Virus record (IMG/VR): IMGVR_UViG_2541047436_000025
Direction: 5' to 3' (one strand)
DNA from: a virus
Taxonomy: Duplodnaviria > Heunggongvirae > Uroviricota > Caudoviricetes
DNA: 3,434 bases
Part shown: piece by piece, positions 1-3,000 of the stretch
Layout of the letters: the number at the start of each line of letters is the position of its first letter
How positions within the stretch are numbered: the first letter of the stretch is position 1
Program-made: the position numbers

Positions 1-3000
1 CATGTATTCTCTATCGCCATTTTTTGCTCTGCGGCGATCTACAGATTCTCCGAAACGCTTCTCCATAAATAATTCATAGGCTGCTCGTTCATCCGATACT
101 GCTGCCAGTGATGCCAGCGCAATCCGTGCCAGCTCTTCCGCTTCTTCTGCTGGAAGCACAACGTTGCTACCCGGTCCGTATGTTTCGCGCCAATGCTGGA
201 TTGTCAGCAGTCGATCTTTGGTAATAGTGGTCATAGCTATTTCACCTTAATCTCAACATTTCGCAGCTTTAGCTCTACTGGCATGTCTGACTTTCCTGTT
301 AATGCTAATGCGAGATTTTCTGGAGTAATGAGAGCAGTTATTGTTTTCCCCATCGCCAGACGAATAATCATTCGTATTTCGCGATCGTCACATGCTCCTG
401 GTCGAACAATTGATATTTGTCCGTTCATCTCACTCTCCTTTGATGCGAATGCCAGCGACGCGTAATGCGTGTTCTAGGTCAATCAGGTAAAGCCAACTGC
501 CATTTTCTTTAGGTATCATGACATGTCGCTCATCTGCATTTATCGGGTGTCCATATCGAAGGTCGTAGCGAGTCGGTAATTGAACTTCCCGCGCTTCCAG
601 TTCAGCAATACGCTTGCTCCCATCAGAGATAACGCCTTCGTAATACTCACGCTGCTCGTTGAGTTGTGATTTTGCTTCTTCCAGTCCATCCAGCAAATCA
701 GCGATAATATCCGCTTCCCGATGACGGATGTGACGCTTAAACGCAGCAAGAGCCGCATCACAATCCCGTTCAGCATTTGGGCTGTCCGGGGTAGCCTGAT
801 ACCACGCCAGCGTCGATTGATAGTTTTGTGCTGCCTCACGCAGTGCCTGATAGTCAATCTTGCCCACTGGCTGCCTCCTTTGCCGGGATTTCTAACTTTT
901 GAGTGGTTGTATCAAATTCAAACAACTTAACCACGTCATCAAACAGGACATAATCACCATCAGGATCTTCAGTCATATCAGCGCCACAATCCTGACCGCA
1001 CGAGTCGCAACCTCCCATATCAAGCTCGTATCGCTTCAGGTTCGCGATATTTGATAAATTCAGCGCCAGTATAGCCAGATCATTAACCTCGTCTGCGATA
1101 TACCCTGCACCATGTCCATACATTTCAATGCGGGATATGATTTCTTCTACACGTTGTTTTGTGATCGTCATTTTTCTCTTCACTCCGATATACAAGGATT
1201 ACTACACCCCCTCTGCTGATTGCGCGAGCTGGATCCCCTGGTTCCATGCCGTCAATACCGAAGGCTTCGAAAAATGCATCTATTGCCTTCTGGCGTTGCT
1301 CCTGCTTACGGCGTTTATTCCATTTTTTCATGAACAACAGTGACAGCCATCGTCCGCTGCAGAACATGATGTAGAAATAACCAAGGAGCGCTAGGCCGGT
1401 GTTCAGGGCTGTATCGATCGTTATCGTGGTGTTGATGTTCACTTCACACCTCTCTGTTTGTTGATAAGTTCAATATCCTGCTGGCAACTGGCGCAAGCTC
1501 TGCATCCACGAACAGCCAGGCGTCGCCGCTCATCTATCGGATCGCCACACTCGCAACAATGAGTAGCAGATGGGGCATTACTATCGGATTTGTATTTTTG
1601 CAGGGAGAGATTGCGCTGCAATTCTTCGATTTCAGCGGCGTTGTCGATGATATCTGCCATTTTCCTTTCCTTCAGGCATGAAAAAAGGAGCCGAAGCTCC
1701 TTTGGTTTTAGAATTCGAATTGCCTTGCCCGCAGGCTTTTCAGCATTGGTCTGGCCCGCTGAACTACGAAACTCGACTGGTCAAGCCGTGCCGCCTCTCT
1801 CAGTAGCACATCTCTGTTCTTCGTCACCATGTAGATGGTCTCAAACGCAATGTCATACAGCTTGTTCGTGTATGAGGAGTTCAGCTCTTTCATGATCGGA
1901 TACAGGTGTTTGCTGAGGTCCTGGGCTTTTTCCATCCAGAGTTGCATGTAGCAGAGGAGGATGATTTCCTCGTCTGTGAATTGTTGCTGTGGTTCTGCTT
2001 GTGCCGACTGCATGTTGCGAAGTTTCTTTTCGCACTCGATGAAGTATCTGCGTATCTGTCGGCCTTTTTCGTTACGCTCTACCATCGCCGTTTCTTTGGC
2101 TGTATCGAGGGTAAGGTGGTAGTCTTTTTTCCCTCGCCCATAACCTATTTCCCGTTTCTGGGAAATAGCTATATAGTCCTGATTTTCAACGAATCCGTAC
2201 TCTTCAATACGTTCTGTAATCCACGATGCAAAGCGTTTACCTACTCCAAGAAAAGTATGTAAATCACGGGCATTAACGAGAAGAGTGGTTTCGTTGGCGA
2301 TAGTGCCGTTGAATACGGGGATGCGTTGACTGGTCATGATGACCTCCTTATTTGTTTAGTTTATAACCGCCAGTTAGTAGCTGGCGGTCGGGTGTCAACT
2401 GAGCCAAATAAGAAGCTCTGGGCATATTCCCCTTGCGGGTGTTGTATTACGCCTCTCCACCCGACCTTTGTACGGATGTAACTATGCCAAATTGCAGGCA
2501 TAAAAAAGCCGCAAAGCTATCGGGTGCGGAGACCGCTTATTTGTTCAGTGCGGTCAGTATGCGATAGCTCTGGAGGATTTGTCAATCAGCGGAATATTGA
2601 TGAACGGGTAACGGTAAATGCCTCATCCAGAAAATTAACGCAAATTCGCATCGCAAACTTGCGTTAATTATCTGAAATATCAAGTTAAATCCCCTTAAAT
2701 GTTTGGGGCACTATTGGGGCAAAATGTGGTTGTTTGGGGCACTATTGGGGCAAAATGTGGTTGTTTGGGGCATATTTGGGGCAAAAAAGAACGTATAAAG
2801 AACGGTGTAAAATTGATTTCTTCATGGTCAAAATGAGGTGTAACAGATTGAAAAATATATGCTCTTGGACGATCTTCGGTAATTCTGTGTTTTTAATGCT
2901 TCATGGTTTCAATATGTCCGTACATGGAATAATAAAGCACCAGAACTTTAGCCATTTCTAACCACTCCTCGTGTTATCTCTATTCCGTAGCGATTCGCTA

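Follow-up and report, generated by a model that had tools for sequence, protein, structure and literature searches.

The window, as the whole stretch of 3,434 nucleotides of tailed-phage DNA analysed here is called, carries on its minus strand a short reading frame with paired cysteines. This locus raises the question whether the gene specifies a phage regulator of host RNA polymerase (RNAP) of the TraR/DksA type and, if so, whether it works as part of a dedicated set of genes directed against the host. The original prediction had placed the gene at the head of a tightly coupled cluster, in which downstream membrane and acidic proteins would be co-expressed with it as a host-takeover module. 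The features on which the answer is based are collected in Table 1.

Table 1. Features of the window, in order of position, with the evidence for each
Feature	Position	Strand	Evidence and remarks
Ead/Ea22-like gene	430..867	-	PF13935 E = 2.2e-13, PHROG_250; further downstream in the same block
Gene for acidic 105-aa accessory protein, pI 4.1	854..1171	-	PHROG_3126 E = 2.5e-66; next in the block after DUF4752
DUF4752 gene	1125..1442	-	PF15944 E = 2.5e-39; PHROG_667
TraR/Orf73-like C4 zinc-finger CDS, 73 aa	1439..1660	-	ORF, Pfam, PHROG, lambda Orf73 identity, Foldseek
Shine-Dalgarno-like stretch AAGGAAAGGAAA	1661..1672	-	sequence reading; directly 5' of the TraR-like ATG
Intrinsic-terminator-like hairpin AAAGGAGC-UUCG-GCUCCUUU + U run	1680..1703	-	RNA fold; between ant and the TraR-like gene
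Antirepressor gene ant (AntA N-domain + P22AR C-domain)	1708..2337	-	PF08346 E = 3.7e-27, PF10548
Structured RNA, Rfam sRNA-Xcc1, ant leader	2378..2466	-	cmscan 69.1 bits, gathering score 53, E = 1e-11
Sigma-70-like promoter match TTGACA-18-CATACT, 10/12	2556..2585	-	consensus scan, pattern match only
Host wrbA retained 5' end, 18 codons, MAKVLVLYYSMYGHIETM	2902..2955	-	sequence reading; prophage/chromosome junction

The reading frame is intact from an ATG start to a TGA stop and its product of 73 residues is MADIIDNAAEIEELQRNLSLQKYKSDSNAPSATHCCECGDPIDERRRLAVRGCRACASCQQDIELINKQRGVK; the Shine-Dalgarno-like stretch in front of it is the same in the right-end copy of phage 933W. The C4 zinc-finger signature that had been announced from the sequence was found, with C35-x2-C38-x17-C56-x2-C59 as ligands in a CxxC-x17-CxxC arrangement. 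The protein contains two additional cysteines, C36 and C53.

Comparison with family profiles upheld the predicted TraR/DksA identity. The match to PF01258 (zf-dskA_traR) reached 31.8 bits over residues 33-64, above the gathering score of 24.9 (E = 1.5e-7), and PHROG_54, 'DksA-like zinc-finger protein', covered residues 1-71 (E = 5e-24). The NCBIfam model TIGR02419 (C4_traR_proteo) gave 52.6 bits over residues 3-64; the protein is not filed under this model because its score lies under the curated cutoff of 59.7. When four known proteins were used as a yardstick, lambda Orf73 (54.7) and 933W p79 (56.6) failed the same cutoff and F-plasmid TraR (80.5) and VP882 Gp61 (68.4) passed it, all four passing the Pfam model. 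The TIGR02419 cutoff leaves out even lambda Orf73, a proven TraR-like regulator. Among 1.8 billion representative proteins, 502 relatives were found at E <= 0.001. A profile built around the protein from 106 relatives, which were 33-89% identical to the query, matched F-plasmid TraR over its full length (E = 4e-19), YbiI (E = 2.9e-17) and, with the tip aligned, DksA (E = 1.4e-5).

Residues with assigned roles in TraR were well represented. The N-terminal DxxDxA motif of the TraR subfamily is present as D3-I-I-D6-N-A8, and the arginine pair of the globular domain as R46/R47, equivalent to R48/R49 of TraR. The Si3 contact ExxRK reads ExxRL (E44-x-x-R47-L48), with leucine in place of the Si3-contacting K50 of TraR, and the same deviation occurs in the active lambda Orf73; the glutamate of the C-terminal helix is kept as E64. 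Among the 106 diverse homologues, C35 and C38 were invariant, and D6, A8, R46, C56, C59 and E64 were conserved in at least 90%.

The AlphaFold2 model, calculated from the 106-sequence alignment (pLDDT 86.6), showed helices at residues 3-23, 44-49 and 57-70. This corresponds to the TraR_N, TraR_G and TraR_C layout of one N-terminal helix, a zinc-binding globular domain and a C-terminal helix, and the size (TraR-subfamily range about 70-75 residues) and the lack of a coiled coil likewise fit the subfamily. These structural elements, as well as the contacts of E46, R49 and K50 with Si3, have been described for TraR by cryo-EM (PMC6970531). The top Foldseek match in the PDB was RNAP-bound TraR (6n57_M; probability 1.00, TM 0.55, rmsd 3.9 Å over 68 columns), followed by YbiI, TraR 5w1s and DksA. 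The rmsd was similar to the 4.0 Å reported between a model of free Orf73 and bound TraR (PMC8614690).

The closest characterised relative is Orf73 of phage lambda. The two proteins align without gaps, with 52 of 73 residues identical (71%) and 63 of 73 positive (86%; E = 3e-39), and a tblastn search of phage records returned the gene of O157:H7 Stx1/Stx2 phages at 100% and those of lambda, HK630 and 434 at 71%, the lambda Orf73 and HK630 proteins having the same sequence. RNAP binding, an inhibitory effect on rrnB P1 and on rpsT P2 and complementation of a dksA null mutant have been reported for lambda Orf73 and four phage TraR homologues; lambda Orf73 moreover shut down ribosome synthesis, slowed host growth and raised burst size or phage yield, its activity was reduced or lost in D3A/D6A mutants, and the DxxDxA motif is described as extending to RNAP's active-site region (PMC9239242).

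Synonymous divergence between the window gene and lambda orf73 was saturated (pS = 0.64, pN = 0.19), and a dN/dS of about 0.15 points to an old paralogue under purifying selection, neither a fresh nor a decaying duplicate. The divergence was unevenly distributed: codons 32-44 displayed zero amino-acid changes, and codons 17-31, covering the outer end of the N-terminal helix and the hinge, were almost wholly replaced (pN = 0.58), so that affinity or promoter selectivity could differ from those of lambda Orf73. Considering profiles, Orf73 identity, motifs, predicted fold and purifying selection together, the gene encodes a TraR/DksA-type C4 zinc-finger protein.

Its genomic position distinguishes it from lambda orf73, which belongs to the pL operon's exo-xis region in the order orf61 - orf73 - ea22. 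The window gene is located between ant and DUF4752, at the prophage end opposite the integrase, and the same phages hold a separate exo-xis copy, which makes it a paralogue and not a positional orthologue. On the minus strand of the circular map of Stx2 phage II, cIII, kil, gam, bet, exo, orf60a, orf63, orf61, c50 and ea22 are followed further on by xis, int, attP, ant, c37, DUF4752, an Ea22/DUF551-like gene and hok. Here c50 is the orf73-type TraR copy of the exo-xis region and c37 is identical to the window protein; this order thus gives two TraR paralogues per phage, the window copy occupying the place that the b region takes in lambda. Within the 933W/Sp5-type Stx prophages in wrbA, the gene counts as the second TraR copy, the att-proximal one. 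A pair of Orf73 sequences, orf73 and L0141, has indeed been reported for 933W (PMC8614690); the locus tags L0141, Z1502 and others led to unrelated papers only.

Positions 1168-3434 of the window shared 99.8% identity with the right arm of the Stx2 prophage of Sp5/VT2-Sakai type in wrbA, which runs through Ea22-like, DUF4752, TraR/DksA and Ant genes to ymdF and the rut operon. Positions 1-1456 shared 98.6% identity with a further O157 prophage that has DUF4752 after a DUF4406 gene. The window itself is thus recombinant, with the crossover inside DUF4752. Phage records stop at 2905-2918, and the retained wrbA 5' end reads in the direction of the ant-traR block. The 2003 annotation of Stx1/Stx2 phage records already lists the repeats as 'arrangements' c, d, e and f.

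The exact 73-residue sequence occurred in 8244 index blocks of public assemblies; the prophages among the ten loci listed lay at wrbA, alongside molybdopterin-oxidoreductase genes or close to a serine recombinase gene. Related TraR/DksA-type sequences were found in 3341 of 5426 complete E. coli genomes, and close relatives bear the NCBI/RefSeq name "TraR/DksA family transcriptional regulator".

Upstream on the same strand lies ant, which also matched PHROG_377 'anti-repressor Ant' (E = 1.4e-97) and the RefSeq name 'phage antirepressor Ant'. It is separated from the TraR-like gene by 47 nt, a distance seen in nine of the ten listed loci with the exact protein and constant in all nine of those where ant was called (it was not called in L012). 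The presence of ant qualifies the claim that the zinc-finger gene is the first of its cluster: it is second in the block, and it is the first gene after the terminator. The gap between the two genes is filled by the terminator-like hairpin, placing the gene after a terminator and not after a promoter, and a consensus scan found no promoter-like site between ant and traR. The hairpin has an 8-bp stem and a UUCG loop (centroid -11.5 kcal/mol), in a 66-nt segment whose stability was no better than that of shuffles (z = -0.74). The hairpin escaped the consensus terminator scan, as part of the U run is taken up in the stem.

The sigma-70-like site of Table 1 was the only coding-strand promoter match upstream of the block, in a window where the count of promoter-like sites was no higher than in shuffles. 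Between this site and ant, one loop of the sRNA-Xcc1 leader (2415-2405) is complementary to the ribosome-binding region of ant (2354-2344), and the resulting duplex was stronger than in all 500 of 500 shuffles. SOS control was considered as well and rejected: no LexA-box match was present upstream of ant, and the two one-mismatch CTGT-N8-ACAG matches, both inside coding regions, do not exceed chance.

On the downstream side, the predicted overlap with the next gene could be read directly from the sequence, the TGA stop of the TraR-like gene (1441-1439) and the GTG start of DUF4752 (1442-1440) sharing the tetranucleotide GTGA at 1442-1439. DUF4752 is thereby translationally coupled to the TraR-like gene. 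Its predicted nature as a membrane protein was a weak call, the best 19-residue Kyte-Doolittle mean attaining a modest 1.36. The GTGA junction is conserved and the coupled partner is variable, being DUF4752 here and in Sp5 and an Ea22-like gene in lambda, HK630 and 933W p79. Such an interchangeable partner argues for mosaic accessory genes over a dedicated functional module; the proposed host-takeover module is accordingly not supported, and the locus shows no more than shuffled accessory genes that are co-transcribed in the ordinary way. DUF4752 was also considered for a partner role like that of QisA in phage VP882, the one TraR partner known; this role is argued against by the absence of similarity, VP882 QisA and DUF4752 giving no alignment.

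Taken together, the product is very probably a TraR-family regulator of RNAP and a paralogue of Orf73, with a mechanism that can be taken over with high confidence from lambda Orf73 and F TraR and an expression scheme read from gene order. According to this mechanism, the single long N-terminal helix would enter the secondary channel of host RNAP and bring the DxxDxA tip (D3, D6, A8) close to where catalysis takes place, at the active site; the small Zn-ribbon globular domain (R46, R47, E44) would dock on the beta' rim helices and Si3, and the C-terminal helix would touch the beta lobe-Si1. Open complexes at rRNA and ribosomal-protein promoters would then be destabilised and amino-acid promoters stimulated, both without ppGpp, and host growth would be slowed with resources diverted to the phage. 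Binding of RNAP and inhibition of rrn and ribosomal-protein promoters by the window protein are predicted by homology.

With regard to expression, ant-traR lies directly downstream of int across attP in the circular genome and would thus be reachable by antiterminated pL transcripts, as a lambda b-region gene is. Once integrated, the pair is cut off from pL and lies behind the ant promoter region, leader RNA and terminator hairpin, so its expression in lysogens is probably low. The simplest reading of the gene order is that the product would come mainly from antiterminated early transcripts running through attP in the circularised phage, the lysogen allowing low read-through at most. Public RNA runs from prophage-carrying strains consisted of flat-depth assembler contigs, one of them spanning the whole window, so that levels of ant and traR are not comparable in them. 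Four raw-read RNA runs came from strains without the prophage and covered the host side only, from the 2876-2990 bin onward.

Two other readings of the same gene have to be weighed. It could be a TraR-fold protein whose main job is unlike that of Orf73, requiring a phage partner, acting in the lysogen and not in lytic growth, or tuning phage instead of host promoters, with hinge residues 17-31 conferring a new specificity. Such a role would account for the keeping of a second paralogue beside the exo-xis copy, under purifying selection and at saturated synonymous divergence, for the concentration of divergence from Orf73 at residues 17-31, and for a regulatory setting of another kind, with ant, a leader RNA and a terminator in front and the retained wrbA 5' end further upstream. 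A precedent for a partner is given by the QisA-TraR complex of VP882, encoded by the co-transcribed genes gp60 and gp61, which overlap by 4 bp. However, every residue known to matter for RNAP binding is kept, QisA has no detectable similarity to DUF4752, and the coupled downstream gene changes between DUF4752 and Ea22 among phages. Additionally, the natural recombinants 933W p79 and P0006, a natural protein of the same hybrid make-up, swap the 3' third between the paralogues, suggesting interchangeable parts. This different job is distinctly improbable.

It is also conceivable that right-arm recombination left a decaying or silent duplicate without current function. The gene does follow a terminator, it lacks a promoter of its own, and it sits in a highly mosaic region where some strains have frameshifts in the ea22-like genes nearby. 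A silent copy is nevertheless hard to reconcile with an intact frame and a good ribosome-binding site, with a dN/dS of about 0.15 at saturated synonymous divergence, with retention of all catalytically relevant motifs, and with a 73-residue sequence that does not vary across thousands of assemblies or between prophages integrated at different sites; we regard it as extremely improbable. An Orf73-like regulator of RNAP remains the preferred reading.

The TraR/DksA call is correct, and the gene is an ordinary one that was known before. It had already been annotated, its closest relative is characterised and the second copy of 933W is in print, and the result is therefore a correct annotation and not new biology. 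Its interest derives from the family: with TraR-type proteins, phages and plasmids impose a stringent-response-like programme on host transcription without ppGpp, and such a factor in Stx phages could affect burst size and hence toxin output. These phages keep two paralogues with different hinges and regulatory settings. It may be, unlikely as this seems, that the att-proximal paralogue is not redundant, combining topology-dependent expression (from pL only in the circular form; exposed in the prophage to the retained wrbA promoter, the leader RNA and the terminator) with a hinge that alters RNAP affinity, promoter selectivity or partner. Stx phages would in that case bring two secondary-channel regulators into play at different times, one of them possibly active at low level in lysogens.

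Comparison with known systems places the protein nearest to copies in other Stx phages. Stx2 phage II c37 matches it at 100% identity, as do the Sp5-type copies, all within the same ant-traR-DUF4752 block. ST933Wp79 of 933W shares the upstream region and codons 1-44 with the window gene; it differs in being a recombinant whose codons 45-73 are of the exo-xis type, and in having an Ea22-like gene next to it in place of DUF4752. Lambda Orf73 is alike in its 73 residues, in DxxDxA, C4, ExxRL and C-helix glutamate, and in a GTGA-type 4-nt overlap with the next gene. However, that next gene is ea22 in lambda and DUF4752 in the window, and Orf73 sits in the exo-xis region, whereas the window copy is found on the far side of attP, preceded by an antirepressor gene and a terminator.

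More distant systems share the architecture to varying extents. F-plasmid TraR (6N57, 5W1S) resembles the window protein in size, three-element architecture and RNAP-contact motifs and is its top structural match, but the two are only 28% identical, TraR comes from a conjugative transfer operon, and it passes the NCBIfam TraR models which the window protein fails. VP882 Gp61 (TraR_VP882) shows 39% identity over 61 residues, with DxxDxA and C4 in common, and its gene likewise overlaps a neighbour by 4 nt; its partner QisA is an upstream CII-like protein of 199 aa, to which no protein in the window is similar. E. coli DksA and YbiI have the C4 zinc-finger domain PF01258 in common with the window protein. 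DksA has 151 aa, depends on ppGpp and uses a coiled coil to present its acidic tip, whereas the window protein has a single N-terminal helix.

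As judged from sequence comparison, the window is a mosaic of two prophage types. Positions 1168-3434 shared 99.8% identity with the right arm of the Sp5 type, the Stx2 prophage type found in wrbA, while positions 1-1456 were 98.6% identical to another O157 prophage, with the gene order DUF4406 then DUF4752. Both homologies overlapped at 1168-1456, within the DUF4752 gene, resulting in a longer product (105 aa, vs 94 aa in Sp5).

The TraR-like gene itself can be mosaic. In phage 933W, the right-end TraR copy (3698-3919 of the compared locus) was found to be a natural chimera when compared with window 1439-1660: its upstream region and codons 1-44 were of the window type, and codons 45-73 were of the type found in the exo-xis region. 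The two loci also differ downstream, since 933W carries an Ea22-like gene directly after this copy, without DUF4752. At the wrbA site of E. coli OkiPb01680 (NZ_AP042506.1, 1994-8139), nothing more than a ~6-kb stub was present, comprising int, xis, a few ea-type genes, an ea22-like gene with a frameshift, DUF4752, TraR and Ant. A remnant of this make-up would result if the ea22/TraR repeats of the two prophage arms, left and right, recombined and everything else in the prophage was deleted. A 102-aa homologue (P0024), 73% identical to the 73-aa TraR-like protein, was filed under a eukaryotic proteome set (eukprot), of which it is most likely a bacterial or phage contaminant.

Features of the ant leader and of the region between ant and the att junction
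Feature	Position	Strand	Remarks
sRNA-Xcc1 (Rfam) match	2378-2466	-	ant leader; 69.1 bits, E = 1e-11
Inverted repeat TTAACGCAA-N15-TTGCGTTAA	2635-2667		perfect, 9 bp; ~50 bp upstream of the ant promoter-like site
31-bp unit TGTTTGGGGCACTATTGGGGCAAAATGTGGT	2699-2790		~2.9 tandem copies; adjoins the att junction

The tandem copies of TGTTTGGGGCACTATTGGGGCAAAATGTGGT generated six TTGGGGCA boxes. Contigs from four RNA runs were one unit short, the joint skipping 2699-2731, so either strains differ in the number of units or the assembly collapsed a copy. The inverted repeat is a possible operator. Beyond the prophage boundary, reads derived from other strains of this species displayed one additional T after 3291 and, at 3378-3403 within ymdF, an additional 40-nt unit, which suggests copy-number variation in the KGG repeat of this small stress gene.

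In the leader of the antirepressor gene ant, the hairpin loop CUUCUUAUUUG (2415-2405) of the sRNA-Xcc1 match was complementary to CAAAUAAGGAG (2354-2344), a segment spanning the ant Shine-Dalgarno, and all of 500 shuffles gave a weaker predicted duplex. The element resembles an anti-RBS lock of the P1 c4 type, here acting on the antirepressor.
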